From assembly GCA_016432465.1 (NCBI GenBank), contig CP066690.1, positions 683,666 through 747,665 on the forward strand: a DNA stretch of 64,000 nt. Direction: 5' to 3'. Positions 1,680 through 62,351 of the stretch are shown here, piece by piece; positions within the stretch are counted from its first letter, which is position 1; each line of letters begins with the position of its first letter. Origin of the DNA: Candidatus Sungiibacteriota bacterium (GTDB lineage: Bacteria; Patescibacteriota; Minisyncoccia; Sungbacterales; HO2-52-23). The notes beneath the pieces are model-generated. The model saw only the letters and a program-made list of their open reading frames with translations. It had not been told where the DNA came from and ran no database searches. A program made the translations under genes and the position numbers.

Positions 1680-1779
1680 CCCCGTTAGAGATAAGGTTTC
1701 TACCCTGATAACAAAGATCACCAAAATTACAGGTGAGTATTATTCAAAGGCGCTGTGGATAACTAAATCTCTAACGGGG
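1680..1779 (+). repeat. MITE-like palindromic element with 13-bp terminal inverted repeats CCCCGTTAGAGAT / ATCTCTAACGGGG
   Basis: Arms at 1680-1692 and 1767-1779. The same ACCCCGTTAGA core recurs at 38357-38427 and 41398-41526. Confidence 0.55.
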
Positions 1780-25930: not shown

Positions 25931-26950
25931 ATGTATACTATGTTCATAAGAAAAATAGGAATTGATCTCGGTACCGCCAACACCCTTGTTTTTGTTCCCA
26001 AAAAAGGGGTGGTGGTAAATGAGCCTTCGGTGGTTGCGGTCTCGCGTGACGAGAACCGGGTTTTAGCTGTGGGAAATGAAGCTCGGAACATGATCGGGCG
26101 CACGCCCGAAACTATTGTTGCTTATCGTCCGCTTCGGGATGGAGTTATTGCCGACTATCGGGTCACGGAGGCTATGCTGCGTTATTTTATAAATAAAGCC
26201 GGCGGCCGCGTACGCCTCTTTCGTCCCGAAGTTATGGTTTCAGTTCCGGCTGGCGTAACTTCTACAGAACGAAGAGCGGTGATTGAAGCCACCGTAAATG
26301 CTGGGGCAAAAGCTGCTTATGTGGTAAAAGAGCCGGTGCTCGCCGCCATCGGCGCTGGTATTCCTATAAATGAGCCGGCAGGACACATGGTGGTTGATAT
26401 TGGCGGCGGGACTACGGATATTGCCGTAATTTCTCTGGGCGGAATTGTGGCTTCAACCTCGGTAAAAGTTGCCGGCAACAAACTGGATCAGGCAATTTCG
26501 GACTATATAAAAAAACATTACAATCTCGCGATTGGGGATCGTACTGCCGAAGATATAAAAATCAAAATTGGTTCGGCGGTCCCGGTTGATGACGAAAAGT
26601 TAAAAATGGAAATTAAGGGACGCGATTTAATGTCAGGACTCCCGAAAACTATTGAAATTCATTCTCCGGAAGTTACGGATGCTATTTCGGATGAGCTGGA
26701 CGAAATTATCCGTGCCGTAAAAGCAGTAATGCATGATACGCCGCCGGAGCTTGCGGCGGATATCATGGATAAAGGGATTGTGATGACCGGCGGAGGAGCG
26801 TTACTGCGGAATATTGATGAACTTGTGTTTCAGGAGACCGGCGTTCCTGCGCATATTGCCGAGGACGCGCTTTTGTGTGTAGCGAAAGGCACGGGGATTG
26901 CGCTGGAACATTTGGATGTATATAAACGCTCAATTATGAGTAAGCGATAG
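25931..26950 (+). CDS. mreB: rod shape-determining protein MreB, paralog 1, stand-alone
   Basis: IGIDLGTANT and actin-fold motifs. RBS AGGGAGG upstream of the ATG at 25931. Confidence 0.9.
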   Translation: MYTMFIRKIGIDLGTANTLVFVPKKGVVVNEPSVVAVSRDENRVLAVGNEARNMIGRTPETIVAYRPLRDGVIADYRVTEAMLRYFINKAGGRVRLFRPEVMVSVPAGVTSTERRAVIEATVNAGAKAAYVVKEPVLAAIGAGIPINEPAGHMVVDIGGGTTDIAVISLGGIVASTSVKVAGNKLDQAISDYIKKHYNLAIGDRTAEDIKIKIGSAVPVDDEKLKMEIKGRDLMSGLPKTIEIHSPEVTDAISDELDEIIRAVKAVMHDTPPELAADIMDKGIVMTGGGALLRNIDELVFQETGVPAHIAEDALLCVAKGTGIALEHLDVYKRSIMSKR

Positions 26951-33587: not shown

Positions 33588-34811
33588 ATGCAAAAATATG
33601 ACTATTTAATTATTGGTGGCGGGATTGCGGGTGTGACTGCTGCAGAGACTATCCGGGAACGCGCGCCTGATTCTTCCATCGGACTGATTTGCGATGAGTC
33701 GTATCCTTTGTATTCACGAGTAATGCTCCCGGGGTATCTCAAAAAAAAGATCTCGCGCGAGCAGCTTTTTTTGCGGCAGGTGGACGATTTTACTTCCAAG
33801 CGCATTGACCTTCGTCTTAAAGAAGAAGCAGCCTATGTTGATGTAAAAAGAAAGGAGGTGGGTCTGGCTAATCGTATAGTTCTTAGCTACGAGAAACTGC
33901 TTATTGCGAGCGGCGGCAATACACTGGACTGGGGAAGGCCGGAAGAACAAGGGTTTATTTATCGTCTGCAGACCCTGGATGATGCGGATAAACTATTTCA
34001 AAAACTTGAGACTATCCGTCAGCCAATAGTGATAGGAGCCTCGTTTATCAGTTTGGAATTTCTTGAAATTTTTGTAACCAACAGTATCCAGCCCCTGCTT
34101 CTTGTACGTACCCCACACTTTTTTTCGCGTATTTTTGATTATACCGGAGGAGAAATACTGCATGACAATTTTGAACGCCACGGCATAAAAATACAATTTA
34201 ATGACGAGATTGCGGAAATAACAAAACACAACACCGCGTTTTCGGTTCAAACCAAGGGTCTACGCATATTGGAGAGCGACGCCCTAGCGCTTGGATTAGG
34301 AATTAAACGCAATATGGAGTTTATCCGTGGCTCCGGAGTGGAGCTAGGAGAGCAGGGGGTACGCACCAATGAGTATTTGGAGACAAGTATAACTGATGTT
34401 TGGGCAGCAGGAGATGTAGCCGAATTTTACGATGTTATTTTAGGGGAGCACCACGCTATGGGTAATTGGACTAACGCTTTTTTGCAGGGGCAAAGAGTGG
34501 GACTCAATATGACTGGAGAGCGTGAGCCTTTTAAAAAAGTTTCCAGTTATTCCATAACCAATTTGGGATTTCAGATAACGGCATTAGGCAATTGCAACGA
34601 TGGCCGCGATACTATTGTGCGTGTGGATAAAATTAAAAATCAATATGAAAGGTTTTTCCTGCGTGACGGCATTTTGGTTGGGGCGGCGCTTATTAATCGT
34701 TTTCAGGACAAATCTCACCTGGCTAAATTCATTGAGGCCAAAGTATCTATGGAGTCGTATCGCGATAAGCTGACCGATTTTGGATTTGACATAACGGCAA
34801 TACCAGCCTAA
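33588..34811 (+). CDS. FAD/NAD(P)-dependent pyridine nucleotide-disulfide-family oxidoreductase
   Basis: GxGxxG (IIGGGIAG), a second Rossmann motif and GD motif (AAGDVAE). The start is taken at the internal Met (MQKYDYLIIGGG). Confidence 0.7.
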   Translation: MQKYDYLIIGGGIAGVTAAETIRERAPDSSIGLICDESYPLYSRVMLPGYLKKKISREQLFLRQVDDFTSKRIDLRLKEEAAYVDVKRKEVGLANRIVLSYEKLLIASGGNTLDWGRPEEQGFIYRLQTLDDADKLFQKLETIRQPIVIGASFISLEFLEIFVTNSIQPLLLVRTPHFFSRIFDYTGGEILHDNFERHGIKIQFNDEIAEITKHNTAFSVQTKGLRILESDALALGLGIKRNMEFIRGSGVELGEQGVRTNEYLETSITDVWAAGDVAEFYDVILGEHHAMGNWTNAFLQGQRVGLNMTGEREPFKKVSSYSITNLGFQITALGNCNDGRDTIVRVDKIKNQYERFFLRDGILVGAALINRFQDKSHLAKFIEAKVSMESYRDKLTDFGFDITAIPA

Positions 34812-34821
34812 TATAGTCTTT

Positions 34822-35574
34822 ATGGAGGAAGATACTAAAATAGAAACCGAGGATATCAAAAACGCCGGAGCGCATTCGGCACCAAATCCATATCTAGTTC
34901 CTGCCGCGATCGTCATTGCCGGACTTTTAATAGCCGGAGCAGTATTTTACACCAACTCTCCAAAAACTCCGGCAGCCAATCGTCAAACAGCAGCAGCGGG
35001 GGAGCCGGCCATATCAGCGACCGGAGATCTAGCGGATGACGATCCGGTATTAGGCAACCCGGAAGCTTTGGTTACCGTGATAGAATTTAGTGACTTTCAA
35101 TGCCCTTTTTGTCGGCGTTTTTTCCGCGATACTTTATCCCAGCTTAAGGACAAATACATAAAAACCGGCAAAGTGCGTTTTGTTTATAGGGACTTTCCTC
35201 TTACGGGGATTCACGACATGGCCCAAAAATACGCGGAAGCGGCAGAGTGCGCGGATGAACAGGGGAAATTCTGGCAGATGCATGACAAAATTTTTGAGGA
35301 GCAGGATAAACGCGGGGTGGCAACGGTGTTTGATATTACCGTGGCTGACATTAAGCAGTGGGCTCGTGGGGTCGGTCTTAACGGCGCGGCGTTTGATGGT
35401 TGTCTTGACTCGGATAAATATTTTGAAGAAGTGCAAAAAGATTTTCGCGATGGTCAGGCGAATGGCGTAAACGGCACTCCGGGCACATTTGTCAACGGCC
35501 GCCTGATTCAGGGCGCAGTGCCTTTTGAGCAGTTTGCATCCGTGATTGAACAGGAACTTGGGCGGGCAAAATAG
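34822..35574 (+). CDS. DsbA-like thiol:disulfide oxidoreductase, membrane-anchored
   Basis: N-terminal TM segment. CPFC active site within a thioredoxin fold. Confidence 0.7.
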   Translation: MEEDTKIETEDIKNAGAHSAPNPYLVPAAIVIAGLLIAGAVFYTNSPKTPAANRQTAAAGEPAISATGDLADDDPVLGNPEALVTVIEFSDFQCPFCRRFFRDTLSQLKDKYIKTGKVRFVYRDFPLTGIHDMAQKYAEAAECADEQGKFWQMHDKIFEEQDKRGVATVFDITVADIKQWARGVGLNGAAFDGCLDSDKYFEEVQKDFRDGQANGVNGTPGTFVNGRLIQGAVPFEQFASVIEQELGRAK

Positions 35575-35645
35575 TATTTAGCTGTGGAAAAGCGGCTCTT
35601 GACAAGCCGTTTTCTCGGGAGTATACTTATTATTATTGAACAACT

Positions 35646-35951
35646 ATGACAACAAAAGAAGTTAAAGTAACCGATTTGTCAAGAAGACTGGCTCTTTTTA
35701 GCGATCCGGTCAGGTTACGGCTTTTCTTGTTCTTGTTTTCCTCTGGCGAGAAGGATCTTTGCGTCTCGGATATTGCGGCCTACCTTAAGAGTTCGCTTTC
35801 CAATACCTCGCACCAGCTAAGAAAACTGGAACTGGCCGGTTTTGCAAGACCAGTGCGCCATGGCCGTATGATATGCTATCAGTCCATCAAGACGGATACC
35901 AATAAATTATTATATACTTATCTTACACGTTTAATGAGGCGCGGATTGTAG
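35646..35951 (+). CDS. ArsR/SmtB-family metalloregulatory transcriptional repressor
   Basis: Winged HTH with the LCVSDIAAYL metal-site region. Confidence 0.7.
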   Translation: MTTKEVKVTDLSRRLALFSDPVRLRLFLFLFSSGEKDLCVSDIAAYLKSSLSNTSHQLRKLELAGFARPVRHGRMICYQSIKTDTNKLLYTYLTRLMRRGL

Positions 35952-35989
35952 CGGATAGAGGAACAACCCTGTTAGTCTATTCGTTTACT

Positions 35990-36238
35990 ATGCGTGCGTT
36001 ATCTATGGCCCAAGTAAAAATATACACAACTCCCACTTGCGTTTATTGCAAGATGACCAAGGAGTTTTTTAAGCAAAACAATATACAGTATGAGGAGAAA
36101 AACGTAGCTACTGACGCTGTGGCTCGCGATGAGATGATTCAAAAATCCGGCCAGATGGGAGTGCCGGTGGTTGAAATTGATGGAAAAATTATCATTGGTT
36201 TTGACCAGCCGCATCTTAAAGAGGCCCTTGGTATTTAA
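35990..36238 (+). CDS. glutaredoxin/NrdH-like redoxin
   Basis: CVYC active site and Grx fold (GVPVVEIDGK). Confidence 0.7.
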   Translation: MRALSMAQVKIYTTPTCVYCKMTKEFFKQNNIQYEEKNVATDAVARDEMIQKSGQMGVPVVEIDGKIIIGFDQPHLKEALGI

Positions 36239-37257
36239 TGAACAAGGTCACGTTTATTGCTATATTTTTGGCCGCATTGTTGGTGGGATTTTTAGGATAT
36301 CAATTATTTTTTAGACCACAGGTTAAATTACCCAAAGGGGAGCCGCGTGAAGAAAAAATTATGATCGAAGAAGGCAAGGAACAAAACATTTTAGTTACCG
36401 ACGGAGTTAAGCATTCTATTCCGCTAAACGAAATTATTTCTGGCGGCCCGCCCAAAGACGGCATCCCTTCCGTTGATAACCCCAAGTTTATGGCCGTTTC
36501 AGAAGCCAATGGCTGGCTTAAAGATGCAGAACCCGGTCTTGCTTTTTCGCGCGGTAACACGCACCGGTTCTATCCGTATCAAATTTTGGTGTGGCATGAG
36601 ATTGTTAACGATTCAATCGAAGGTGAACGTATTTTGGTGACATACTGCCCCCTTTGTCTAAGCGGATTTGTCTTTGACCCGGTAGTGAAGGGCGAGCGGG
36701 TTGAGTTTGGAACTTCGGGCAAACTCTGGAAATCTAACCTCGTTATGTACGACAGGAAAACCGATTCGCTTTGGTCGCAAATTTTGGGCGAAGCAATTGT
36801 GGGCGAGATGACCGGCATCAAGCTAAAACTGCTTGAGTCCGATTTACTGCGCTATGGGGATTGGAAAAAGAAATTTCCCCAAGGACAGGTGATGTCGCGC
36901 GATACCGGCGCCACAAGATTTTACGGGTCCAGTCCTTATGGCGACTATTTTTCCCCGGTTGATTTTGCTATCGGCCTTACCGGTTCCCGCGATGCCCGTC
37001 TCTCACCCGAAGCATTTATCTTTGGGATTGTGATAAATGAAAAAGCAAAGGCCTATCTGGTTGATGCCGTTAAAAGTAAAGGCGAGGTTGAGGACGATTT
37101 TCAGGGGGTAAAAATTATTTTACGCCACGATAAAGAGTTAGACGTGGTACGAATGTTTAAAAAAACACCAGACGGCCGGGAAGAGCGTATAAATCCTTTC
37201 AGCGCTTTCTGGTTTTCCTGGTCAGCCGTCCACCCGGCGACTGACTTATATAAATAA
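36238..37257 (+). CDS. DUF3179-family protein, membrane-anchored
   Basis: YCPLC and YDRKTDSLWSQ..GEA..G blocks. Confidence 0.6.
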   Translation: MNKVTFIAIFLAALLVGFLGYQLFFRPQVKLPKGEPREEKIMIEEGKEQNILVTDGVKHSIPLNEIISGGPPKDGIPSVDNPKFMAVSEANGWLKDAEPGLAFSRGNTHRFYPYQILVWHEIVNDSIEGERILVTYCPLCLSGFVFDPVVKGERVEFGTSGKLWKSNLVMYDRKTDSLWSQILGEAIVGEMTGIKLKLLESDLLRYGDWKKKFPQGQVMSRDTGATRFYGSSPYGDYFSPVDFAIGLTGSRDARLSPEAFIFGIVINEKAKAYLVDAVKSKGEVEDDFQGVKIILRHDKELDVVRMFKKTPDGREERINPFSAFWFSWSAVHPATDLYK

Positions 37258-37297
37258 GGGTTGGTCGTTATTATTAAAATAAATTTATATTACAATT

Positions 37298-37474
37298 ATG
37301 GATGATCACCATCAAAATAAATGTATGGCTTGTTCTTGTCCTTGCGACATGCATAAAGAGCATACCCACCACGAAGAGGATCACAATATGGACCACGAAG
37401 AAGGCCACGAGAAAGGAGGGTGTATGGCTTGTTCTTGTCCTTGCGACGAGCACAAAGAGCATAACCACGAATAG
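37298..37474 (+). CDS. Cys/His-rich metal-binding peptide (58 aa) with a duplicated CMACSCPCD motif. Metallothionein-like
   Basis: Hand translation MDDHHQNKCMACSCPCDMHKEHTHHEEDHNMDHEEGHEKGGCMACSCPCDEHKEHNHE. Below the ORF-track cutoff. Confidence 0.55.
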   Translation: MDDHHQNKCMACSCPCDMHKEHTHHEEDHNMDHEEGHEKGGCMACSCPCDEHKEHNHE

Positions 37475-37497
37475 TTCGTGGTTATGCTTGCCCGAAC

Positions 37498-38025
37498 ATG
37501 AGCACTAAAAACATTATTTTTCTGGTAGTTGTTATTTTGGCGGCTGCGGGACTCGCGGGTTTATTTCTGGTACAGCGGGGCGTAATCAATCCGCCCTCTC
37601 CGCAAACCAATAAGGCCGCCCCTGAATTTAGTTTTAACGATTACAACGGAAAGGAAGTAAAGCTTTCCGATTTTCGCGGAAAGCCGATATTGGTAAATGC
37701 TTGGGCCGCTTGGTGCCCGTTTTGTCGCGAGGAGCTGTCTGATTTTGCCAAAGTTAAAGAAGAGTTTGGCGGTAAATTTGAAGTTATTGCTATTGACCGC
37801 GCCGAACCGCTTGAGGTTGCCAAACGCTACTCGGACCAGCTCGGAGTTACGGAAAAGTTCGTTTTTCTTCTTGATCCGGCGGACTCCTTTTATCAGTCCA
37901 TAGGCGGTTTTTCTATGCCCGAGACGATTTTTGTGGATAAAGACGGCAAAACTGTTTTTCACAAGCGGGGTCCTATGAAGCAAGAAGAAATACGACGCAG
38001 AATACAGGAAAATTTTAATTTATAG
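37498..38025 (+). CDS. TlpA/ResA-like thioredoxin-fold thiol:disulfide oxidoreductase, membrane-anchored
   Basis: WCPFC active site. Confidence 0.7.
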   Translation: MSTKNIIFLVVVILAAAGLAGLFLVQRGVINPPSPQTNKAAPEFSFNDYNGKEVKLSDFRGKPILVNAWAAWCPFCREELSDFAKVKEEFGGKFEVIAIDRAEPLEVAKRYSDQLGVTEKFVFLLDPADSFYQSIGGFSMPETIFVDKDGKTVFHKRGPMKQEEIRRRIQENFNL

Positions 38026-38033
38026 TTATATTT

Positions 38034-38867
38034 ATGGATTTATCTCTCGTTATTCCGGCATTTATTGCTGGTATCCTGACATTTTTAGCTCCCTGCACCT
38101 TGCCTTTGGTGCCGGGTTATTTGGGCTTTATCAGCGGGGCCTCGCTGGAGGACTTAAAAGACCCGATGAAGGCGTCCACGGCCCGTCGTAAAATTTTTCG
38201 GAACGGTTTATTTTTTATTCTTGGATTTAGCGCCGTCTTTATTATTATGGGTACGTTAGTTGGATTTGTCGGAGCCTCTCTGCTTGCCCCTTACAGATTT
38301 TGGTTATCAAGAATTGGCGGCGTATTTGTTATTCTTTTCGGTCTTTTTATGCTTCACCCCGTTAGAAATCCGCCCCGCTTCTTAAGCGCGGCGGCAGCCG
38401 TCTTGGGGCGGCTTATTTCTAACGGGGTGAATGTTTTAAAAATTTCGTTTCTTGTTCGGGAAAAACAACTTAAGGCGCCGGGCGCATTGGAAAGAGGAAA
38501 GTCGCTAACTTCTTTTATATTAGGTTCGGCTTTTGCTTTTGGTTGGACTCCTTGCGTGGGGCCCATTCTTGGGTCCATTCTTCTTCTTGCTTCAACTTCA
38601 ACCACTGCGTTTCAGGGGTCTTTGCTTTTGGCTGTTTTTTCCGCAGGTCTTGCGGTTCCGTTTCTTCTGGTGGCACTGGGTATTGGTTCGGCCGCGAAAT
38701 TCATTTCCAAAATTTCTAAGTTTTTGAGCGTGGTATCTGTTATCGGCGGCCTTCTGCTTATTTTCTTGGGTATATTATTGCTTACGGGCAATATGGCCCT
38801 TCTGATTTCTTGGGGCTACCGTCTATTTCAATTCATCAACTATGAAAGGTTATTGGATTACTTATGA
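38034..38867 (+). CDS. ccdA: cytochrome c-type biogenesis/disulfide transporter CcdA (DsbD family)
   Basis: TM Cys pair (LAPCTLPLVP..., WTPCVGPILGSIL). A 71-nt palindromic insertion lies at 38357-38427. Confidence 0.75.
   Translation: MDLSLVIPAFIAGILTFLAPCTLPLVPGYLGFISGASLEDLKDPMKASTARRKIFRNGLFFILGFSAVFIIMGTLVGFVGASLLAPYRFWLSRIGGVFVILFGLFMLHPVRNPPRFLSAAAAVLGRLISNGVNVLKISFLVREKQLKAPGALERGKSLTSFILGSAFAFGWTPCVGPILGSILLLASTSTTAFQGSLLLAVFSAGLAVPFLLVALGIGSAAKFISKISKFLSVVSVIGGLLLIFLGILLLTGNMALLISWGYRLFQFINYERLLDYL
38357..38427 (+). repeat. CCCCGTTAGAAAT / ATTTCTAACGGGG palindromic element inserted within the ccdA coding sequence
   Basis: Arms at 38357-38369 and 38415-38427, with a nested CCGCCCC/GGGGCGG pair inside. 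Confidence 0.5.
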
Positions 38868-38927
38868 TAAAACCTTAGCCGTATAATCTTACGAGGCGAC
38901 GCCTCATAAGATCTCCGGATAAATTTT

Positions 38928-39518
38928 ATGGCAAAAAGATACGGACAATCGGTGAGCAATAAGACCTTGATTATAGGAGCGGTGATCATTTTCGCCGGAC
39001 TTATGATTTTTGTTGGTTTTTATAACAGGAATTCCCCTGCGGCTTCCGGAGGAGGCGTTCGTGGCAGTCAAAGTTCGCCCGGAAGTTATCAGGCGGCCGC
39101 GAGCGGCGGTGTTACATCAAAAAATCTTGCCCCCGATTTCACTTTATCAAAACTTGACGGGGGAACGATAAGTCTTGCCGAATTTCGCGGGAAAAAGCCG
39201 GTAGTTGTTGATTTTTGGGCTTCGTGGTGCCCCAATTGCCGCCGCGATATGTCAAATCTCAACCGCTTTTATGAAAACTATAAAGACCGGCTGGAGGTTA
39301 TCGCCGTAAATTTGCAGGAGTCTGAAGGAACGGTAAGGAATTTTATTGAGTCGCGCGGGTTTTCCTTTCCCGTAGCGCTTGACCCCTACGGCGGAGCTGG
39401 TCAGGCCTTTGGCATCCGCTACACCAATACCCACTTTCTTATTGATAAAAACGGGAAAATAGTTCGCGAAATACCGGGCGACATACGCGAAGCGGACTTT
39501 TTGTCGCTCCTGCAGTAA
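38928..39518 (+). CDS. TlpA-like thioredoxin-fold oxidoreductase 2, membrane-anchored
   Basis: WCPNC active site. Confidence 0.7.
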   Translation: MAKRYGQSVSNKTLIIGAVIIFAGLMIFVGFYNRNSPAASGGGVRGSQSSPGSYQAAASGGVTSKNLAPDFTLSKLDGGTISLAEFRGKKPVVVDFWASWCPNCRRDMSNLNRFYENYKDRLEVIAVNLQESEGTVRNFIESRGFSFPVALDPYGGAGQAFGIRYTNTHFLIDKNGKIVREIPGDIREADFLSLLQ

Positions 39519-39534
39519 CTTTTTAAATTCTTAT

Positions 39535-39924
39535 ATGAATCAAGTCGCCAAAAATATACTGACAAGATTAACCCCGGTCTTGGGGGCTGGTGCGGTCGGT
39601 GCGTGCCCGCTCTGTTGGATTGGTTCCGCGTCCCTCCTTACCTATCTTGGACTGGGCGCGCTAATTTCGGTGTGGCGATTGATGGCTTTTGTTTTACTTG
39701 GTATGAGCCTCATTGGTTTTATGTTTGATTATCGCTCCCATAAAAATCTGTCTCCCCTGCTATTTCTTGTGGTAGGCGGCATATTACTTTATCTCGGTCG
39801 GTACGTTTTTGGCGGAGCAGGCTTTGGCGGCTGGCAGATTTGGGGTCCGGGAGCAGTCCTTGTGCTTGCCGCGGTTATTTATAACAGACAACAATTTTAT
39901 AAAAAAAGGACACGAATATTATGA
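39535..39924 (+). CDS. small 4-TM membrane protein with an intramembrane CPLC motif (MerT/MerF-like thiol transporter?)
   Basis: GACPLCW in TM1. It lies immediately upstream of the MerA-like gene. Confidence 0.35.
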   Translation: MNQVAKNILTRLTPVLGAGAVGACPLCWIGSASLLTYLGLGALISVWRLMAFVLLGMSLIGFMFDYRSHKNLSPLLFLVVGGILLYLGRYVFGGAGFGGWQIWGPGAVLVLAAVIYNRQQFYKKRTRIL

Positions 39925-41390
39925 ACAAGTTTGATTACCAATTCATTATCATCGGAGGCGGCGCGGCTGGTTTTGCGGCAGCCATTAAGGCAGATTCTCT
40001 GAAGATTAAAACTTTAATGATATCGGGCGGCAAAGTGCCCTTGGGCGGCACCTGTATTAATGTCGGCTGTATGCCGTCAAAACGATTGCTTACCGCCGCA
40101 GAAGCCTATTGGAATGCCAAAAACAGCAAATTTGATGGAGTAAAAAGCGCCGCGCCGGAATTAAGTTTTGAAGAAGTCATAAAGTCAAAAGACGCTCTTA
40201 TCAACAAACTTCAGAGCAAGGCATATGCCGGCACTCTCAAATTTTTGGTTTATGTCACTCTCAAAGAGGGAGACCCCGAAGGAGTCGCTCCGCGACCCTA
40301 CGGGGCAGGCGCGAAATTTATTGATGAACACACAATCGAAGTAAATGGCGAGAAAATAACCGGAGAAAAGTTCCTTATCTCAACTGGTTCTTCCACATTC
40401 ATCCCGCCGATTTCTGGATTAATTAATGTAGATTATTTAACCAACATAGAAGCCTTGAGCTTAAAAGAATTGCCTAAATCAATGGTTATTTTAGGCGGCG
40501 GTCCTTTGGGGCTTGAATTCTCCCAGATTTACAATCGTTTCGGCACAAAAGTGACCGTTTTGCAGTCAGCGGACAGAATCGCTGATCGCGAAGAGCCGGA
40601 GTTATCAAACTTTCTGCAAAAGAAATTAGAAGAGGAGGGAATTACAATTCACACTTCCGCCCAAACAAAAAGCGTTAGTCGGCATGACGGTCTTATCGAG
40701 GTTCAAGCAGATGTGCGCGGTAAAGAAGTAATAATCAAGGCGGAAAAAATATTGGTAGCAACCGGAGTAAGAGCTAATACCCAACCTTTGAACCTCGAAA
40801 GCATCGGCGTCGGCATCGGTAAAAAAGGAGGAGTAGTAACCAACGAATTTTTGCAGACAGACCTTCCCCACGTATTCGCGGCCGGTGATGTTGTAGATCA
40901 GTATGGGGACGAAATTAATCCCAAATTAGAGACAACTGCCGGAAGAGAGGGTTTTGTTGCCGCGTCCAACCTTCTTGAAAATAAGGGTCTCAAAATGGAT
41001 TTTCGCTCAACTCCGCATGCTATTTTCACTGACCCGCCGCTCGTCAGCGTCGGCCTTACCGATGCCCAAGTCGTCAAGCAAAGCGGGCTTACCTGCAGCT
41101 GCCGCACCCTGAGCCTGGAGCTTGTTCCAAAAGCGCACATTTTGGAAGCGGCAGACGGCTTAATTAAAATGGCAATAGACGCCAAAACAGAGGAAGTTGT
41201 CGGTATTCACATGGCGGGAGCAAGAGCGGAAGAAGTTATTTCAATGGCAAGTTTTATCATCAAAAACAGAATGAAGCTGGACGATATTATTGAGAATACT
41301 TTTATTTTCCCGACTATGGCCGAATCAATTAAATGGGTCGCCCAATCCTTCAGGAAAGATGTCAGCAAGCTTTCCTGCTGTACGGAATAA
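39921..41390 (+). CDS. merA: mercuric reductase-like pyridine nucleotide-disulfide oxidoreductase (MerA core without the NmerA domain)
   Basis: GGTCINVGCMPSK redox-active disulfide and the C-terminal Cys pair (..KLSCCTE) typical of MerA. Confidence 0.6.
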   Translation: MNKFDYQFIIIGGGAAGFAAAIKADSLKIKTLMISGGKVPLGGTCINVGCMPSKRLLTAAEAYWNAKNSKFDGVKSAAPELSFEEVIKSKDALINKLQSKAYAGTLKFLVYVTLKEGDPEGVAPRPYGAGAKFIDEHTIEVNGEKITGEKFLISTGSSTFIPPISGLINVDYLTNIEALSLKELPKSMVILGGGPLGLEFSQIYNRFGTKVTVLQSADRIADREEPELSNFLQKKLEEEGITIHTSAQTKSVSRHDGLIEVQADVRGKEVIIKAEKILVATGVRANTQPLNLESIGVGIGKKGGVVTNEFLQTDLPHVFAAGDVVDQYGDEINPKLETTAGREGFVAASNLLENKGLKMDFRSTPHAIFTDPPLVSVGLTDAQVVKQSGLTCSCRTLSLELVPKAHILEAADGLIKMAIDAKTEEVVGIHMAGARAEEVISMASFIIKNRMKLDDIIENTFIFPTMAESIKWVAQSFRKDVSKLSCCTE

Positions 41391-41397
41391 ATATGAA

Positions 41398-41526
41398 CCC
41401 CGTTAGAAGTCTTGGGCAGAAAAATTTTATGAAAATTTTTCTGCGTGTATATCGCGGGAATTATCAAAATAACCATGAAAAACAACAACATAACACAAAG
41501 TGAGGACGCTCCGACTTCTAACGGGG
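41398..41526 (+). repeat. CCCCGTTAGAAGTC / GACTTCTAACGGGG palindromic element spanning the 5' end of the downstream redoxin gene
   Basis: Arms at 41398-41411 and 41513-41526. Confidence 0.5.
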
Positions 41527-41954
41527 TGAAAGCCCCGGAATTTATAACCGAAAATGAACAATGGCTCAATTCAGAGCCGCCGAAGATCGCTGATTTAAAA
41601 GGCAAGGTGGTTTTAATTAAATTTTGGACTTTTATGTGCTCTTGGTGCCAGCAGGATTTGCCGGGCATTATGGAGATTGAAAAGAAATACAAAGACAAGG
41701 GGTTGGTGGTAATCGGCATCCATTCCCCGGAAACAACTTTTGAGCGCGACGTAGAAGCATTAAAGAAACAAATGAAAGTTTTGAAAGTGGACTTTCCGGT
41801 TCTTACCGATAACGCAAGACAAAATTGGAAAGCATACAAAGTAGAAAACTGGCCGGCGTATTATTTAATTGACCGTGAAGGAAACATTGCTTTTAGCATT
41901 CTTGGTCCGGGAGTCGAGGACCAATTAGAAAATAAAATTAAAAATTTAATATAA
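41475..41954 (+). CDS. thioredoxin-fold redoxin (AhpC/TSA/TlpA-like)
   Basis: CSWC active site. The start is uncertain (41445 or 41475). Confidence 0.6.
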   Translation: MKNNNITQSEDAPTSNGVKAPEFITENEQWLNSEPPKIADLKGKVVLIKFWTFMCSWCQQDLPGIMEIEKKYKDKGLVVIGIHSPETTFERDVEALKKQMKVLKVDFPVLTDNARQNWKAYKVENWPAYYLIDREGNIAFSILGPGVEDQLENKIKNLI

Positions 41955-41958
41955 ATTT

Positions 41959-42207
41959 ATGGAACAAACGAATCACAAAATAACAATTTACGGTACATCC
42001 ACTTGTCAGTCATGCGCTCTCGCGAAAGAATATCTTCATTCTAAGAATTTTGAGTATGAATTTAAAAATGTCGGCGAGGACGCCGTGGCGCGGGAGGAGA
42101 TGATCGCCAAAAACGGCGGCATGCTTAGCACGCCAACAATTGAAATAGACGACAAAATTATTGTTGGTTTTGACAAGGGAAAAATAGACGCTCTTTTGGG
42201 AAATTAA
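41959..42207 (+). CDS. glutaredoxin/NrdH-like redoxin 2
   Basis: CQSC active site. Paralog of the protein at 35990-36238. Confidence 0.7.
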   Translation: MEQTNHKITIYGTSTCQSCALAKEYLHSKNFEYEFKNVGEDAVAREEMIAKNGGMLSTPTIEIDDKIIVGFDKGKIDALLGN

Positions 42208-42253: not shown

Positions 42254-42868
42254 ATGCCCAAAATCAATATTTTACAAATTGGAAAAGAGGTTCTAAAAAA
42301 CGAAGCAGACGCAATCCAAACCGTTGGAAAAAATCTTGACTCGTCTTTTATTAAAACAATTGAATTGTTGTACCACGCGAAAGGAAAAATCGTTCTTGCG
42401 GGAATCGGTAAATCCGGAATAGTGGCGCGGAAAATTGCCGCGACGCTTTCCAGCACCGGCACTTTCAGTCTATTTGTCCATCCGGTGGAAGCACTGCATG
42501 GAGATTTTGGTATGGTCCAGAAGGATGACGTCATTATAGTTATCTCTCACAGCGGGGAGACGCCGGAGGTAGTAAATTTTATAAATATTCTAAAGAGTCA
42601 CGGAAATAAAATTATCGCTATTACCGCGAATAAAACATCAACCATAGCTAAGCTCTCCGATATAATTCTTTTAACCCATGTAAAAGAAGAGGCTTGTAAA
42701 ATTTGTACCACTTTTAACTTAGCCCCAACGACAAGCGCGTTGGCGGAGTTGGCCTTGGGTGATGCAATGTCAAGCGCGCTTCAGGAGATGAAAGGGTTTA
42801 AACGAGAACATTTTATGAAATTTCACCCCGGAGGTACGCTTGGAAAATCAAAGATATTTAAAAAATAG
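42254..42868 (+). CDS. SIS-domain sugar-phosphate isomerase (KpsF/GutQ-like, no CBS domains)
   Basis: GIGKSG and SHSGET blocks. Confidence 0.7.
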   Translation: MPKINILQIGKEVLKNEADAIQTVGKNLDSSFIKTIELLYHAKGKIVLAGIGKSGIVARKIAATLSSTGTFSLFVHPVEALHGDFGMVQKDDVIIVISHSGETPEVVNFINILKSHGNKIIAITANKTSTIAKLSDIILLTHVKEEACKICTTFNLAPTTSALAELALGDAMSSALQEMKGFKREHFMKFHPGGTLGKSKIFKK

Positions 42869-42949
42869 ATTAAAATCCTTTTTCGTATTATGATTTCTAA
42901 CGGGTCAAGTTGTTGCGAAACACCACAATTTAATAAAGGGGGTGAGGAT

Positions 42950-44431
42950 ATGGAAGAGAATAAAACTGAAACACATGAAAAATCCGTGATCGCGCGGGAG
43001 CTTTGGTTTCAAGAAAACGAAAAAGAATTTATCGCAGAACACAGTATTGGCGCAACCATAAGAGCCGGCGACCGAACAGCGGAAACGACCGACCCCAAGG
43101 GCGGATATCGAGAAGGAGGATTTGTTACCTTGAAAATTCAAAAAGCTGACGGTAGCTTTGATCCCTTGGAGACAACGGTAGTGGTATACTCAGCTAAAAA
43201 AAAGGTGTTGGGAGAAATTAAGCCGGAAGATTTAGAAGGAACGCCATTGTCCCAGAAAACCAAAACAGCGCTCATTGAAAAATTAACGCGTCTTTACGGG
43301 AGAGATTTTACCGACAACGACACTGTTACGATTGTGCGGTTTGAATACGCAGATGATCTAAAGGAAGCTGGTAAGAAGATACTTGCATCTCTTCAGACCT
43401 TTGCTCAAAATGATTTACTCGAATTAAAAAACGGGCCTTTTCGTTTGGCCCCTGAATACAAGCCATCTGGTCTTACCCCTGAAAATATCAAAGGCCGGCC
43501 ACTTTCATTTATTATCGGTGAACAGCCCTCCGAGTATGCCGTCAGCCCCCTGATGTGGAATGCAGAATTCAAAATGAGGGGTTCAAATGGACTTTTTTTG
43601 CCCGTTGATATCGCCCCGGATAAAAAGGGTAATCTGAAAGAGTTTATTGATAAAATCGTTGAGATCGGAAATTTGGTTTTTCGTGTTTTGACTATTACCA
43701 ACCCCTACAAAATCGATGCCTTGCAGTACTTCAAAAATCTGCAAGAGAGATATCCTGATCGAGTGGATTTGAGCGAGGATGCTTTGCGTATTGGCGCTAC
43801 CAATCAAATACTAATCGGGCCTGATAACAAGTTTTACGTTATTAACTCCGATGGTCGCGGCATGGCAAATAGTATTGAGGAATTTCTTAGTGGTAAAAAC
43901 CGGGGAAATTTGGAGGCAAAACACGTTGGTCTGGTCGGCGCCGGCGGCGCTGCTCGGGGTATCGCTTATGAGGTTGCCAAGCGAATGGGTCCTCATGGTT
44001 TGCTGACAATATTTAACCGAACGCAGGAAAAGGCCGTAGCTCTGAAAGCGGAACTATCTAGCTATTTACCACAAACACCGATAGAAGCCCGGGGCCTCAA
44101 TGAACTGCCCGGTCAGGCGAAAGAACAGGAAATAATTATTTCGTCCATTACTGAGGGTGACCCTCTTTCCGATTCTGGTGTATATAAAACCCTTCCCCGG
44201 GGAATTTTGATTGTCGATGCTAATTATGGTCCTAAATCTATTATTGAACAAAAGGCGCATGAGGCAGGACGTGACGATCTTGACATTCATGATGGTGCCG
44301 GTATGGTCGTTGAGGGCTATATTATTGCATCACAAGAACTTTCGCGATTGTGGAAATATGAAGTTTCCAGGGAAGTGTATCGGGAGATCGGATTTGTGTT
44401 TGGTTATAGGAAGCGGGCTGCGAGTTCGTAA
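42950..44431 (+). CDS. shikimate dehydrogenase-like (AroE-family) domain fused to a roughly 195-aa N-terminal domain of unknown function
   Basis: SPLMWNA, TNPYK, NSDGRG and VGAGGAARGIAYEV Rossmann motif. Strong RBS GGGGGTGAGG before the ATG at 42950. Confidence 0.55.
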   Translation: MEENKTETHEKSVIARELWFQENEKEFIAEHSIGATIRAGDRTAETTDPKGGYREGGFVTLKIQKADGSFDPLETTVVVYSAKKKVLGEIKPEDLEGTPLSQKTKTALIEKLTRLYGRDFTDNDTVTIVRFEYADDLKEAGKKILASLQTFAQNDLLELKNGPFRLAPEYKPSGLTPENIKGRPLSFIIGEQPSEYAVSPLMWNAEFKMRGSNGLFLPVDIAPDKKGNLKEFIDKIVEIGNLVFRVLTITNPYKIDALQYFKNLQERYPDRVDLSEDALRIGATNQILIGPDNKFYVINSDGRGMANSIEEFLSGKNRGNLEAKHVGLVGAGGAARGIAYEVAKRMGPHGLLTIFNRTQEKAVALKAELSSYLPQTPIEARGLNELPGQAKEQEIIISSITEGDPLSDSGVYKTLPRGILIVDANYGPKSIIEQKAHEAGRDDLDIHDGAGMVVEGYIIASQELSRLWKYEVSREVYREIGFVFGYRKRAASS

Positions 44432-45820: not shown

Positions 45821-46367
45821 GAATGTCAGGGTGTTGTGTGGAAGAAATATAAGAGATGTCACGGGAAGTGATATCTCGCAATCCCGTACCGTGTCGCCGA
45901 AGGCGACTCTGGTACCGGGATAAAAGGTGTCATGGGGGGTGGTTGCAAAGAAAAAGGCCCGTGTGACAGGCCTTGCGCGTTAGGAGGATTTAGGTTTCCA
46001 GAGAGGACAGCGAGTTACGGCGAGAGCCACGTTGTCTTCAACACAGACTTGGTAGAGCGCTTGAGCGATGCGACAGTTGTCTGGTTGGCCAGGCTTCAAA
46101 TTACCGCAGTTTAAGCAGAGACATTCGGATCGACGCAGTGATTCAGTGGTCGGGTTTATCCAAACATCATGACCATAGTGCGTTTCCTGCCTCGGCTGTT
46201 CTTTCATTGGAAACCTCCCTGTAGATCGGTTTTGGTTTAAAGATAACAGAGGGGGTATTGAATTGCAAGGCCCGCATGACATTTTCTATAATCCGACTAG
46301 CTTGAAAGGCTTATAACTGAAAATGTGGCTTAAAATATAGAAAATCCGTGCGTGACAGTATTTAAAA

Positions 46368-46431
46368 AGTAAAGGTGTCACATGACGCAGACCAGATACT
46401 CTTCTCTAATTCGCGCGAATAAGCGAATAGT
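46368..46431 (+). repeat. exact 64-bp direct repeat, copy 1 (agtaaaggtgtcacatgacgcagaccagatactcttctctaattcgcgcgaataagcgaatag)
   Basis: Identical to 46970-47033. Confidence 0.8.
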
Positions 46432-46960: not shown

Positions 46961-46969
46961 GTAATAAGC

Positions 46970-47033
46970 AGTAAAGGTGTCACATGACGCAGACCAGATA
47001 CTCTTCTCTAATTCGCGCGAATAAGCGAATAGG
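46970..47033 (+). repeat. exact 64-bp direct repeat, copy 2
   Basis: Identical to 46368-46431. Confidence 0.8.
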
Positions 47034-53511: not shown

Positions 53512-54531
53512 GATATAGGAATTGATTTGGGTACGGCCAATACCCTTGTTTATGTTCGGGGGCGGGGAATTGTGATAAATGAGCCGTCGGTGGTGGCGGT
53601 AAATCAAAAAACCGGACAGATTGTGGCGATTGGCTCCGAAGCCAAACGAATGGTCGGGCGGACACCGGCCTATATTACTGCTTCGCGTCCGCTGGTTGCG
53701 GGCGTGGTTTCTGATTTTGAAGTTACTGAGGAGATGCTTAAGTTTTTTATCCGCAAGGTTCACGAAGAGGCTTTTTCTTTTTTTGCGCGGCCGCGAGTTG
53801 TCATCGGAATTCCCTCCGGCGTAACAGAGGTTGAAAAACGCGCCGTGGAGGATGCGGCCAAAAATGCCGGAGCACGCGAGGTTTATCTGGTGGAAGAACC
53901 AATGGCGGCAGCCATAGGAGTGCGGATGCCGGTGCAGGAGGCAGTTGGTTCCATGGTAGTAGACATTGGCGGCGGCACTGCAGATATTGCCATGATTTCT
54001 TTGGGCGGCATTGTGGTTTCTAAGGCCCTGCGCATTGCCGGAGACAAATTAAATGAAGATATTATACGTTTTGCCCGGGACGAGTTTAAACTTCTGCTGG
54101 GTGAGCGTACAGCAGAAGATATTAAGATCGCGATTGGTTCGGCTTACGAACTATCAGAGCCGCTTGAGGCCACCATGCGAGGACGCGATTTGGTGACCGG
54201 GCTGCCCAAGGAACTCGTAGTGGACGATGCTGATATTCGCCGCGCCATGCGACATTCCATAAATACTTTAGTAAACGCCATTAAAGCTACGGTGGAGGCA
54301 ACCCCGCCGGAATTAGTGGCAGACATTATGCACCGCGGAATTGTAATGGTTGGTGGAGGATCGCTCCTGCGGGGACTGGACCGTTTAATTCAAGAGGAGA
54401 CAAAAATTCCGGTAAAAGTGGCCGAAGATCCTCTGACTGCCGTGGTGCGGGGCACAGGAATTATTTTGGAAGACATTGACTCTTTACGGGATGTTCTGGT
54501 GAGCACGGGTTATGAGAAAGTCCCAACCTAA
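53479..54531 (+). CDS. mreB: rod shape-determining protein MreB, paralog 2, in an mreBCD-mrdA operon
   Basis: IGIDLGTANT and actin-fold motifs. Confidence 0.9.
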   Translation: MLNKLFGHFSHDIGIDLGTANTLVYVRGRGIVINEPSVVAVNQKTGQIVAIGSEAKRMVGRTPAYITASRPLVAGVVSDFEVTEEMLKFFIRKVHEEAFSFFARPRVVIGIPSGVTEVEKRAVEDAAKNAGAREVYLVEEPMAAAIGVRMPVQEAVGSMVVDIGGGTADIAMISLGGIVVSKALRIAGDKLNEDIIRFARDEFKLLLGERTAEDIKIAIGSAYELSEPLEATMRGRDLVTGLPKELVVDDADIRRAMRHSINTLVNAIKATVEATPPELVADIMHRGIVMVGGGSLLRGLDRLIQEETKIPVKVAEDPLTAVVRGTGIILEDIDSLRDVLVSTGYEKVPT

Positions 54532-61157: not shown

Positions 61158-62351
61158 ATGACAAGAGATGTAAGAACATGGATTGAGATAAATCAAAGAT
61201 CGCTCCACCACAATGTGGAGCAATTTTTGAAGTTGATCCCAAAGAAGACTTGTCTTATGGCGGTAGTAAAATCTAACGCTTATGGTCACGGTCTCGTACA
61301 AGTTGCAAAATCTTTGCTTGCCCTCCGTAGCTTTAGCGAAGGAGGGTGGTTCGGAGTGGATTCCATTGTTGAGGGTCTGCGGCTTCGCAAAGAAGGCGTT
61401 AAAAATCCAATTTTTGTTCTGGGCGCCACACTTCCCTCACGCCTTGAGGAAGCAGCCAAAGAAAACATAATCATTACTGTTTCCAATTTTGAGATTCTAA
61501 AAGAGTTAAACAGAATAAAAAAACCTCCGGTCTTTCACGTAAAAATGGACACCGGCATGCATCGTCAGGGCTTTTTATCTACTGATATTCCCAAGGTTTT
61601 AAAATTATTGAAATCGTATCGTTTAAGGCCTCAAGGTATTTACACCCATTTTGCCGCAGCCAAAGATGCTGCCTATCCAACTTATACGTTGGAACAACTT
61701 AAAAAGTTTAATAGAGTGGTTTCCGATTTTAGAAAGGCCGGATTTTCCGCCAAAGGCGGATCCCCGTCTTCGCCCGGCTACGGACGGGCAGGCGCCTCGG
61801 GCGGAAAGAATTTAATACGGCATGCCGCGGCCAGCGGCGGTGCTCTTCTTTTCCCGGAGGCACATTTAGATATGGTGCGGATCGGCATGGGTTTGTACGG
61901 CTATTGGCCGTCGCCAGAAGCACAAATTGCAAAGCGCAATGCGCCGATCACCCTAAGGCCGGTATTGACGTGGAAAACAGTTGTGAGCGAGACCAAGGAG
62001 ATACCGCGGGACTCGTTTGTGGGCTATGATCTTACAGAACGAGTACCTCAAGATACAAAAATTGCCGTCCTACCGGTTGGGTATTGGCACGGTTACGATA
62101 GAGGCCTTTCGGGCCTAAGTGATGTATTGGTACGCGGCAGGAGGGTTAGGGTGCTTGGTCGTGTCAGTATGGATATGATAGTGGTTGACGTGACAAAAGT
62201 TTCTAAAGTTAAGGCGGGCGACGAGGTTACGCTTGTTGGACGAAGCGGTAAAGAGGTAATCTGGGCGGACGAACTTGCACTTAAAATCGGCACAAGTCAG
62301 TATGAATTTTTAACTCGTATTAACCCCTTGATTAAAAGATTTATAGTATGA
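61158..62351 (+). CDS. alr: alanine racemase with a low-complexity Gly/Ser/Ala insertion
   Basis: PLP-Lys motif AVVKSNAYGHG and the C-terminal beta domain. Confidence 0.85.
   Translation: MTRDVRTWIEINQRSLHHNVEQFLKLIPKKTCLMAVVKSNAYGHGLVQVAKSLLALRSFSEGGWFGVDSIVEGLRLRKEGVKNPIFVLGATLPSRLEEAAKENIIITVSNFEILKELNRIKKPPVFHVKMDTGMHRQGFLSTDIPKVLKLLKSYRLRPQGIYTHFAAAKDAAYPTYTLEQLKKFNRVVSDFRKAGFSAKGGSPSSPGYGRAGASGGKNLIRHAAASGGALLFPEAHLDMVRIGMGLYGYWPSPEAQIAKRNAPITLRPVLTWKTVVSETKEIPRDSFVGYDLTERVPQDTKIAVLPVGYWHGYDRGLSGLSDVLVRGRRVRVLGRVSMDMIVVDVTKVSKVKAGDEVTLVGRSGKEVIWADELALKIGTSQYEFLTRINPLIKRFIV

Follow-up and report, generated by a model that had tools for sequence, protein, structure and literature searches.

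A row of thiol-redox and metal-handling genes in the tiny genome of a groundwater bacterium, Candidatus Sungiibacteriota bacterium (Patescibacteriota), raises the question of whether it encodes one pathway or two systems that merely lie side by side. The row occupies positions 34822 to 42207 of a 64,000-nucleotide stretch (contig CP066690.1, 683,666 to 747,665), here called the window, and comprises genes for a DsbA-like oxidoreductase, an ArsR/SmtB-family regulator, two glutaredoxins (Grx1 and Grx2), a DUF3179 protein, a Cys/His-rich peptide, two TlpA-like redoxins (TlpA1 and TlpA2), CcdA, a MerC-like membrane protein, a MerA-type flavoprotein and a cytoplasmic redoxin (see table). Our analysis indicates that the row is a composite of two modules typical of Patescibacteria. 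Module 1, with the order ArsR(2-Cys)-Grx-DUF3179-(Cys/His peptide)-TlpA-CcdA-TlpA, extends from 35646 to 39518 and is accompanied by the DsbA-like gene at 34822; module 2, with the order MerC-like-MerA(core)-cytoplasmic redoxin-Grx, extends from 39535 to 42207. We propose, at a probability of roughly 0.55, that both modules act together as a defence against thiophilic metals. Parts of the row are common in relatives of this bacterium, and it is their cooperation that we put forward as a proposal from sequence comparison.

All open reading frames (ORFs) named in a preliminary description of this DNA were recovered intact on the plus strand, at the positions listed in the table, and Pfam and NCBIfam back every domain call given to them. 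That description regarded such a system as unexpected in a minimal genome, whereas the DUF3179, MerC-like and MerA families all proved abundant in candidate phyla radiation (CPR) genomes (see also PMC8261052). The novelty lies in the DUF3179 relay operon and in the accessory set of MerAs that lack the NmerA domain, not in the presence of MerA.

The MerA-type flavoprotein and its immediate neighbours

The flavoprotein scores 488.5 bits on the MerA equivalog hidden Markov model TIGR02053 (cut-off 454.45), against 334.3 on the lipoamide dehydrogenase model (cut-off 408.8), and all other families scored also remain below their own cut-offs. Its closest structures in the PDB are the MerAs 5x1y (E = 1e-91) and 4ywo (1e-86), with dihydrolipoyl dehydrogenases behind at 1e-66, and a 100% identical protein in NCBI bears the name mercury(II) reductase. 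Published screening for MerA relies on C207/C212 (numbered as in Bacillus RC607), Y264, a Tyr (bacterial type) or Phe (archaeal type) at 605, and C628/C629 (PMC8261052). In the window protein the active-site pair C45/C50 lies within GGTCINVGCMPSK and is invariant across the alignment; the C-terminal vicinal pair C486/C487, in KLSCCTE (an SCCTE end), aligns with the CC of 5x1y and 4ywo; Y102, equivalent to Tyr264, aligns with the Tyr of QKY in 5x1y; and F463, the archaeal-type equivalent of Phe605, lines up with the Phe in 4ywo and, in 5x1y, with the Tyr of APYLT. In a neighbour-joining tree (distance-based, without bootstrap support, and rooted on paralogues from neighbouring loci) the protein falls in the clade ending in Cys-Cys, together with archaeal-type sequences, and nine paralogues all fall outside; eight of these have no C-terminal tail at the columns concerned and one has Val-Asp there. 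Its nearest relatives beyond CPR are archaeal. It does not cluster with dihydrolipoamide dehydrogenases and keeps the Tyr and Cys signatures, which supports the MerA-like assignment of the preliminary description, and none of the six reading frames of the window contains the HMA/NmerA motif (GMxCxxC), in agreement with its remark that NmerA is missing. By these signatures the protein is predicted to be a core MerA of archaeal type, without NmerA, whose substrate, by homology, would be Hg(II). A mercury reductase in CPR is itself not new: MerA in many CPR lineages, their position as sister to archaeal MerAs and bacterial Phe605 variants have already been reported (PMC8261052).

The window MerA also carries an extra CxC (C392-S393-C394, positions 41094-41102) that is not mentioned in the survey just cited (PMC8261052). 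Among 115 sampled MerAs with a C-terminal Cys pair, all those from CPR, DPANN, Asgard and haloarchaea have the motif, it is nearly always paired with Phe605, and each of its carriers is without NmerA. Conversely, it is absent from 38 of 38 NmerA-bearing MerAs sampled, as well as from 5x1y and 4ywo. We know of no characterised member of this clade. The CxC may be a built-in Hg hand-off site, and together with the adjacent redoxins it is a candidate for the hand-off that NmerA performs elsewhere.

Directly upstream, the stop codon of the merC-like gene overlaps the merA start by 4 nt. The preliminary description was right in placing a small CxxC membrane protein beside MerA, and the two genes are in addition translationally coupled, but its assignment to the MerT type did not hold. 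The protein has 129 residues and, by hydropathy, three clear hydrophobic segments and possibly a fourth, with CPLC in the first. It matches the MerC profile PF03203 weakly (20.5 bits against a gathering score of 27.6; E = 7.7e-4), and all 20 aligned members of its family match the same profile at E <= 0.01 (best 1.1e-7); a GxCPLCW motif in the first transmembrane (TM) helix is invariant in the 20 sequences. MerT identity was ruled out, since the window protein has no match to PF02411 (MerT) at E <= 0.01 and none of the 20 family members matches MerT. We predict that the membrane protein is a divergent MerC, not a MerT. The family is widespread in CPR phyla, with 57-81% identity among at least 120 matches listed, and relatives in UniRef and NCBI are named 'MerC domain-containing protein'. 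In Saccharibacteria (locus L088) the genes form an ArsR-MerC-like-MerA operon with an 8-nt overlap. MerC-like genes also occur without merA, and they pair with non-MerA reductases as well, because in Doudnabacteria (L089, 6001-8411) the gene after ArsR-MerC-like-FMN_red encodes a class I flavoprotein disulfide reductase lacking both the C-terminal Cys pair and the MerA active-site motif; that locus continues with CsoR, a P-type ATPase and DUF1573.

Downstream of merA, the cytoplasmic redoxin (closest structures DipZ, SOQ1 and ResA) and Grx2 are conserved partners of this MerA clade. Five loci with MerA orthologues (77-89% identity) carry an ArsR-family gene immediately upstream of merA, and in three, L001, L003 and L087, orthologues of the redoxin (79-87%) and of Grx2 (72-75%) lie 3' of ArsR-MerA. 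One unrelated gene is interposed in each of these sets; the redoxin orthologue follows merA directly in L001 and L003 and one gene (FMN_red) further on in L087. Genes for thioredoxin-fold CxxC proteins lie within 3 kb of 12 of 32 CxC-type merA genes and of 2 of 38 NmerA-type genes (Fisher p 9e-4, a value inflated by relatedness and by the hand-picking of loci). Genes of the FMN_red family (ArsH-like NADPH-dependent FMN reductases) recur beside ArsR, merA or Grx in Patescibacteria (L003, L027, L005, L087, L089), and DSPc-type phosphatase genes recur beside DUF3179 and CcdA (L003, L090); the window has neither.

The redoxin neighbours admit a different reading of the flavoprotein itself, in which MerA of the CxC/Phe605 clade would be an NAD(P)H disulfide reductase, similar to high-Mr thioredoxin reductase with its C-terminal Cys-Cys shuttle, that reduces the redoxin or glutaredoxin and so powers the CcdA-TlpA-DUF3179 chain described below. 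This would suit the redoxin and Grx conserved 3' of ArsR-MerA in three Parcubacteria loci, the enrichment of thioredoxin-fold neighbours near CxC-type merA, the lack of CxC in the solved MerA 4ywo of M. sedula, the TrxB-like reductase that occupies the equivalent position after Grx in an Uhrbacteria MerC-DUF3179 operon, and the recurrence of CcdA and a redoxin at or near merA in four lineages. We nevertheless consider it improbable: the protein passes the MerA equivalog model while all other scored families stay under their cut-offs, the Hg-ligand positions Tyr264 and Phe605 are retained, as is the KLSCC tail, its gene is coupled translationally to one of the MerC family, its usual regulator has three conserved Cys, as in thiophilic-metal sensors, and CxC-type MerA often occurs without CcdA. 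A bolder version, to which we give an equally small chance, holds that the whole NmerA-less CxC/Phe605 clade (CPR, DPANN, Asgard, haloarchaea) does not consist of dedicated mercury reductases and that the 13-gene row is one electron relay from NAD(P)H to the cell surface. If it were true, many archaeal and CPR 'mercury reductase' annotations would mislead about function.

The DUF3179 relay operon

Eighty metagenomic loci encoding DUF3179 relatives were gathered, 54 of which are at least 5 kb long. Within these 54, relatives of the window genes were found for ArsR in 41, TlpA1 in 38 (mostly just upstream of CcdA), CcdA in 36, Grx1 in 36 (adjoining DUF3179), the DsbA-like protein in 21, TlpA2 in 12 (56-77% identity, mostly upstream of DUF3179) and the Cys/His peptide in 8. 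A MerC-like gene is present in 3 (5 of all 80), and true MerA in none. The common order is ArsR-Grx-(TlpA2)-DUF3179-(peptide)-(MerC)-TlpA1-CcdA. Module 1 is a conserved Patescibacterial operon in its own right, with the DsbA-like gene as a frequent accessory, and because none of the 54 loci carries true merA it must have a role independent of Hg reduction.

By hydropathy, the DsbA-like protein, DUF3179, TlpA1 and TlpA2 are each held by one N-terminal anchor and lie outside the membrane, and CcdA (59% identical to its homologue in L086) has six TM helices. A reducing relay of the CcdA/TlpA type is encoded, as the trans-membrane disulfide relay of the earlier account implied. With NCBIfam ResA scores of 109 and 87, both under the cut-off of 170, TlpA2 and the cytoplasmic redoxin are not ResA proper. 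Motifs of TrxA and TrxB were not found within the 64-kb window, the only part of the genome covered by that search.

Natural domain fusions tie DUF3179 to this relay. The family has 8,335 members among 1.84 billion cluster representatives searched (50% identity), and when ten long representatives were scanned, five proved to be Redoxin-DUF3179 fusions, one a DsbD_TM-DUF3179 fusion and one a DsbD_TM-Redoxin-DUF3179 fusion; the remaining three have unrelated N-terminal domains. Fusions of this kind point to DUF3179 as the likely client of the relay, and taken with the operon statistics they speak for a single functional chain of CcdA, TlpA and DUF3179.

These data bear directly on the proposal, made in the preliminary description, that CcdA and the two TlpA proteins take the place of MerP, that is, that in a system of MerT/MerA type the relay itself would bind Hg(II) outside the cell. 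In its favour, the CxxC domains of TlpA type do face outward, the window has no gene for MerP or another HMA protein, and several lineages have CcdA and a redoxin beside merA or close to it. Against it, the membrane protein resembles MerC and not MerT; the partner with which the relay is fused and jointly conserved is DUF3179, not MerA; and the relay belongs to a conserved operon of which no instance among the 54 longer loci has true merA. In all characterised systems known to us TlpA and CcdA carry electrons, which also counts against a MerP-like role, and we regard this proposal as very improbable.

The chemistry that DUF3179 might perform is suggested by its conserved residues. Its CxxC is present in about 85% of representatives and H120 in 97%, and a WHE..ND motif and several aromatic residues are conserved. 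Selenocysteine forms of the family, UxxC/T, have been catalogued (PMC9312934). An AlphaFold2 model built from 74 sequences, including 50%-identity representatives, reached a predicted local distance difference test score (pLDDT) of 95 and a predicted template modelling score of 0.91; 30 close homologues alone had given an unusable pLDDT of 64. Foldseek returned no match in the PDB for this model, and a Pfam scan of the 74 members at E <= 10 detected neither a Rieske profile nor any other secondary family. The spacing H120-x16-C137-x2-C140 resembles the Rieske CxH...CxxH ligand spacing, and the CxxC and the conserved His, set in a putative Rieske-like beta domain, are probably a metal-binding or thiol-redox site; we infer a metal-binding role. 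In the literature searched DUF3179 is named in just three papers, and always in lists. Placing it as the client of a dedicated Grx-CcdA-TlpA relay gives it a testable role, with a putative Rieske-like domain and a His/Cys/Cys site.

A proposed joint function for the two modules

That the relay module and MerA are functionally linked is plausible, since CcdA and a redoxin lie at or near merA in four loci, namely the window, L027, L086 and L172. Locus L027, from another Patescibacterium, has the order ArsR-FMN_red-Grx-TlpA2-(71-aa Zn-ribbon-like ORF)-DUF3179-TlpA1-CcdA-MerA; its module 1 is 53-70% identical to that of the window, whereas its MerA is only 43% identical and belongs to another CPR clade. 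In L086, TlpA1-CcdA is divergent from ArsR-MerA, and in L172, from an Aenigmarchaeota (DPANN), Redoxin-DsbD_TM and three unannotated genes are followed by MerA and a small thioredoxin. The unannotated genes beside merA in L172, L171, L027 and L001 gave nothing significant in Pfam. Related arrangements were found further afield. An Acidobacteriota contig carries DUF3179, then a MerT-like/HMA fusion, then an NmerA-bearing MerA, and in Uhrbacteria the order is Trx-CcdA-ArsR-MerC-x-DUF3179-DSPc-Grx-TrxB-like (L090). The MerC-domain protein of this last locus (P0207, 6001-6576) has a C-terminal Cys/His tail homologous to the window peptide (E = 3e-10).

The window peptide itself has an internal 48-nt direct repeat (92% identity) and matches no Pfam or NCBIfam family. 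It has a homologue (72%) in L003, an unannotated 53-aa ORF; the 85-aa gene after DUF3179 in L003, which we had considered as its counterpart, encodes a small thioredoxin-like protein. The peptide would be a cytoplasmic binder of thiophilic metals.

Regulation speaks less clearly for a joint function. The sole regulator is of the ArsR family, and no MerR-family regulator is encoded beside the row. The window ArsR (HTH_5 38.5 against 22; NF033788 50.9 against a cut-off of 55) has two Cys, C39 in DLCVSD and C77 in GRMICY, both invariant in 47-48 of 48 operon-linked homologues; it keeps one Cys of the CVC motif (DLCVSD), the second invariant Cys being in the wing, and its closest solved structures are Lmo1102, SmtB, ArsR and CadC. 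The ArsR genes that precede merA or merC in relatives encode a distinct three-Cys subtype with the motifs QCA and KICYLLC. This subtype is absent from the window, so that Hg-responsive control is doubtful here; regulation would fall to the two-Cys ArsR. The promoter-like site just upstream of arsR is the best match in the region, as a match to consensus only, the total number of matches not exceeding the shuffle expectation, and the row is probably transcribed from it.

Several observations weigh against a joint function. No true merA was found in the 54 longer DUF3179 loci and few of them have a MerC-like gene; in Niyogibacteria the two modules lie 7 kb apart with separate ArsR genes; the three-Cys ArsR precedes merA or merC in every other Patescibacterial locus examined but not in the window; the MerC-like protein does not reach the gathering score of Pfam; in about 15% of DUF3179 representatives one Cys or both are missing; and relatedness and locus choice inflate the adjacency statistic for the redoxin genes. 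The two systems could then be independent and merely adjacent, with module 1 serving as an envelope thiol-homeostasis or oxidative-repair operon and module 2 alone handling mercury. DUF3179 would be an extracytoplasmic redox enzyme under a redox-sensing two-Cys ArsR of the BigR/SqrR type, and the adjacency would reflect a shared redox neighbourhood, not a pathway. BigR and SqrR are disulfide- or persulfide-sensing ArsR proteins with two Cys, the pattern of the two invariant Cys in the window protein. The conserved non-Cys residues of DUF3179 (WHE, ND, several Tyr and Trp) suggest an enzyme, and CxxC/UxxC families are typically redox-catalytic. Independence accounts less well for the four lineages in which CcdA and a redoxin recur at or near merA, in one of them with a MerA that is not an orthologue, for MerC-like genes and Cys/His peptides inside DUF3179 operons that have no merA, for the MerC-Cys/His fusion that adjoins DUF3179, or for the DUF3179-MerT/HMA-MerA operon of Acidobacteriota. 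On balance we consider independence a possibility to be taken seriously, if an unlikely one, and prefer the reading in which the modules act together.

In our model of joint action, the cytoplasmic Grx1 would be the electron donor to CcdA, and from this Grx-like redoxin electrons would travel by way of CcdA to the two TlpA proteins, which would hand them to the CxxC of DUF3179; the architecture of the chain is observed, and its direction is our reading. The TlpA-type redoxins would hold the surface CxxC of DUF3179 reduced, and reduced DUF3179 would bind or process thiophilic species at the cell surface. Reduced thiols on DUF3179 and TlpA may capture metal and feed MerC, and the MerC-like protein would use its intramembrane CPLC to move the metal, Hg(II) or another thiophilic one, across the membrane. 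Inside the cell, cytoplasmic CxxC proteins and the Cys/His peptide would take the metal in place of NmerA, and MerA would reduce it with NAD(P)H, to Hg(0). We infer the direction of electron and metal flow, and the identity of the metal, from sequence. For mer systems without NmerA, the MerC-like importer, Cys/His peptide, cytoplasmic redoxin, Grx and MerA CxC are candidate steps of Hg hand-off. If the coupling is real, it would show how cells that have very small genomes and lack an outer membrane protect surface thiols and dispose of thiophilic metals, and it would allow a sharper reading of 'merA' counts from groundwater metagenomes.

The row can be compared with several known systems. In Sulfolobus, merRHAI combines a core MerA with a TRASH-type MerH chaperone. 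The window resembles this archaeal type (represented structurally by 4ywo of M. sedula) in a MerA without NmerA and with Phe at the Tyr605 position, and related Patescibacterial loci share its use of an ArsR-family rather than a MerR-family regulator. It differs in having no TRASH-type MerH, in whose stead there are a DipZ/TlpA-like redoxin, a Grx and the Cys/His peptide, in the conserved CxC that 4ywo lacks, and in missing the dedicated three-Cys ArsR. As in Tn21-type MerC (PF03203), the membrane protein is small and polytopic, with a Cys pair in the first TM and its gene directly 5' of merA; unlike it, the window protein is very divergent, has CPLC rather than CAAC, and belongs to a family that also occurs in merA-less DUF3179 operons and, in Uhrbacteria, as a fusion to a Cys/His tail. 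An ArsR-family repressor, SmtB, controls the metallothionein SmtA, and here too an ArsR-family regulator lies 5' of a small Cys/His-rich peptide; the window peptide is nevertheless unrelated in sequence, mid-operon and fusion-linked to a MerC-type membrane protein.

For the relay, the nearest parallels are the CcdA-ResA/TlpA pathways and DipZ of Mycobacterium tuberculosis, which share the CcdA conduit, membrane-anchored TlpA-type CxxC redoxins and natural fusions. Operons of the window type differ from these in being headed by ArsR and a glutaredoxin and in their likely client, which is not apocytochrome c or Sco/CoxB, the fused and co-conserved partner being DUF3179. In the ScsABCD copper-tolerance system, the DsbD-like ScsB reduces ScsC, a Cu-binding thioredoxin-fold protein. 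There, as in our model, a trans-membrane supply of reductant keeps an extracytoplasmic CxxC protein reduced against a thiophilic metal; in contrast, DUF3179 has a putative Rieske-like domain where ScsC is DsbA-like, the proteins have monoderm-type anchors where those of Scs are periplasmic, and metal binding is here only predicted. A partnership of a MerA-type reductase with a glutaredoxin has a counterpart in Synechocystis, where the MerA-like enzyme Slr1849 is reportedly, in work of 2013 attributed to Marteyn, controlled by glutaredoxin 1; those genes, unlike the ones in the window, are not in one operon and have no MerC, CcdA or DUF3179 context.

Inserted elements and the surrounding sequence

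Table. Genes, promoter-like sites and inserted elements of the row, in window coordinates
Feature	Position	Strand	Details
Promoter-like site before DsbA-like gene	34786-34814	+	10/12
Flavoprotein, Pyr_redox_2 + Rubredoxin_C (ferredoxin/rubredoxin-reductase-like)	33591-34811	+	Pfam; no CxxC
DsbA-like protein (Thioredoxin_4), membrane-anchored	34822-35574	+	CPFC; PF13462 129 bits, PF01323; N-terminal TM residues 20-38
Sigma-70-like promoter match	35599-35627	+	TTGACA-17-TATACT; 11/12 positions; 19 nt upstream of arsR
ArsR/SmtB regulator, two-Cys subtype	35646-35951	+	PF01022 HTH_5
Glutaredoxin-like redoxin (Grx1), cytoplasmic	35990-36238	+	CVYC; PF00462 73.5 bits
DUF3179 (PF11376), membrane-anchored, extracytoplasmic	36238-37257	+	CPLC (C137/C140); 269.1 bits vs cut-off 27
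Cys/His-rich peptide, 58 aa	37298-37474	+	2x CMACSCPCD.HKEH; internal repeat
TlpA-like redoxin 1 (TlpA1), membrane-anchored	37498-38025	+	CPFC; PF08534, PF00578; N-terminal TM
CcdA (DsbD_TM)	38034-38867	+	Cys in APCTLP and WTPCVGP; PF02683 55.2 bits vs 27.1; 6 TM
Palindromic element in ccdA	38353-38431		Inverted repeat; -52.8 kcal/mol, z = -7.5
TlpA-like redoxin 2 (TlpA2), membrane-anchored	38928-39518	+	CPNC; PF00578 96 bits; N-terminal TM
MerC-like membrane protein	39535-39924	+	CPLC; PF03203 E = 7.7e-4, under gathering score
Predicted core MerA without NmerA	39921-41390	+	TIGR02053 488.5
Semi-palindromic 12-codon insertion in merA	40275-40310 (codons 119-130)		Encodes PEGVAPRPYGAG; alignment; fold z = -2.5
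Palindromic element at merA-redoxin junction	41396-41531		z = -7.6; 11-17-nt termini same as ccdA element
Cytoplasmic DipZ/TlpA-like redoxin	41475 or 41526 to 41954	+	CSWC; PF00578, PF08534; no TM helix
Second glutaredoxin (Grx2)	41959-42207	+	CQSC; PF00462
Third hairpin element	1680-1779		Outside the row; a lone half-site lies separately at 42895-42905

Two palindromes had been noticed in the row, at 38357-38427 and 41398-41526, and the analysis bears out both. Inverted pairs of the 11-mer CCCCGTTAGAA lie at 38357/38427 and 41398/41526, within elements whose predicted folds are far more stable than those of shuffled sequences; allowing one mismatch the 11-mer is found 7 times in the window against 1.5 expected, a number reached in 0 of 100 shuffles. 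Members of this hairpin family have the termini (A)CCCCGTTAGAR...YTCTAACGGGG(T) and variable interiors of 35-110 nt. The copy in ccdA lengthens the loop that joins TM3 to TM4 by 25 in-frame residues (HPVRNPP...ISNGV), an insertion absent from the homologue in L086, which has a 25-residue gap, and from that in L027. At the second site orthologous loci have only 4 nt between merA and the redoxin gene, where the window has the palindromic element. The ATG at 41475 falls inside the element, and the true start of the redoxin is possibly the in-frame GTG at 41526, which would give the protein the 142-aa length of its orthologues. Elements with identical termini are present in other Parcubacteria loci (L001 at 9966-10031, L126-L128 and L131); in L001 the copy makes up the 5' end of merA, where it codes for an N-terminal extension, 'SNGV', that is seen in P0018 too.

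The merA gene of the window has an insertion of another kind, a semi-palindrome with the arms CCCCGAAGGAGTCGC / GCGACCCTACGGGG, common to only 2 of 10 close orthologues. Other orthologues have different Ser/Ala/Gly/Pro-rich insertions at three other sites, so that this MerA clade has tolerated in-frame insertion repeatedly.

The shared strand of the row is uninformative, because 53 of the 64 long ORFs of the window are on the plus strand. Nor is the region a compositionally distinct 'island', as it had been called: by tetranucleotide distance to the window it ranks 16 among 31 chunks of the same size, and its GC content at third codon positions is 0.46, against 0.43 +/- 0.04. These ordinary values leave recent horizontal acquisition unsupported and, together with the conserved synteny of the flanking genes in relatives, led us to rule out a horizontally acquired island. 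A SIS-domain gene and a gene for a 513-aa shikimate-dehydrogenase-like protein with a long N-terminal extension follow the cluster (42254-44431). A relative of the SIS gene lies near merA in L003; relatives of the shikimate-dehydrogenase-like gene lie 3' of merA in L001 and L005, and a Pfam-annotated Shikimate_DH gene lies there in L003 as well. Because of these relatives near merA, the neighbourhood is old rather than recently assembled. On the other flank, the flavoprotein at 33591-34811 had been counted with the row as a preceding pyridine nucleotide-disulfide oxidoreductase; we dropped it from the system, since no relative of it was found across about 170 related loci, and it is probably an unrelated neighbour.

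Other repeated sequences lie elsewhere in the window. The 31-nt sequence CCTCCTTCGCTCAAGCTACGGAAGGCAAGCA is found at 1335-1365 and, inverted and 60 kb away, at 61315-61345, with 94% complementarity, and may represent a second dispersed repeat family. A 68-nt direct repeat with an internal palindrome (46363-46430 and 46965-47032; 97% identity) has its copies 602 nt apart. Three tandem tRNA-like units, spaced 71-74 nt, occupy 264-485; ARAGORN recognises a single one, tRNA-Ile(GAT) at 264-335, a weak further tRNA at 417-480 (36 bits) comes from Rfam, and neither calls the middle unit. Finally, 25955-26577 and 53515-54143, 27.6 kb apart, share 80-88% nucleotide identity over short segments, which suggests a paralogous gene pair.

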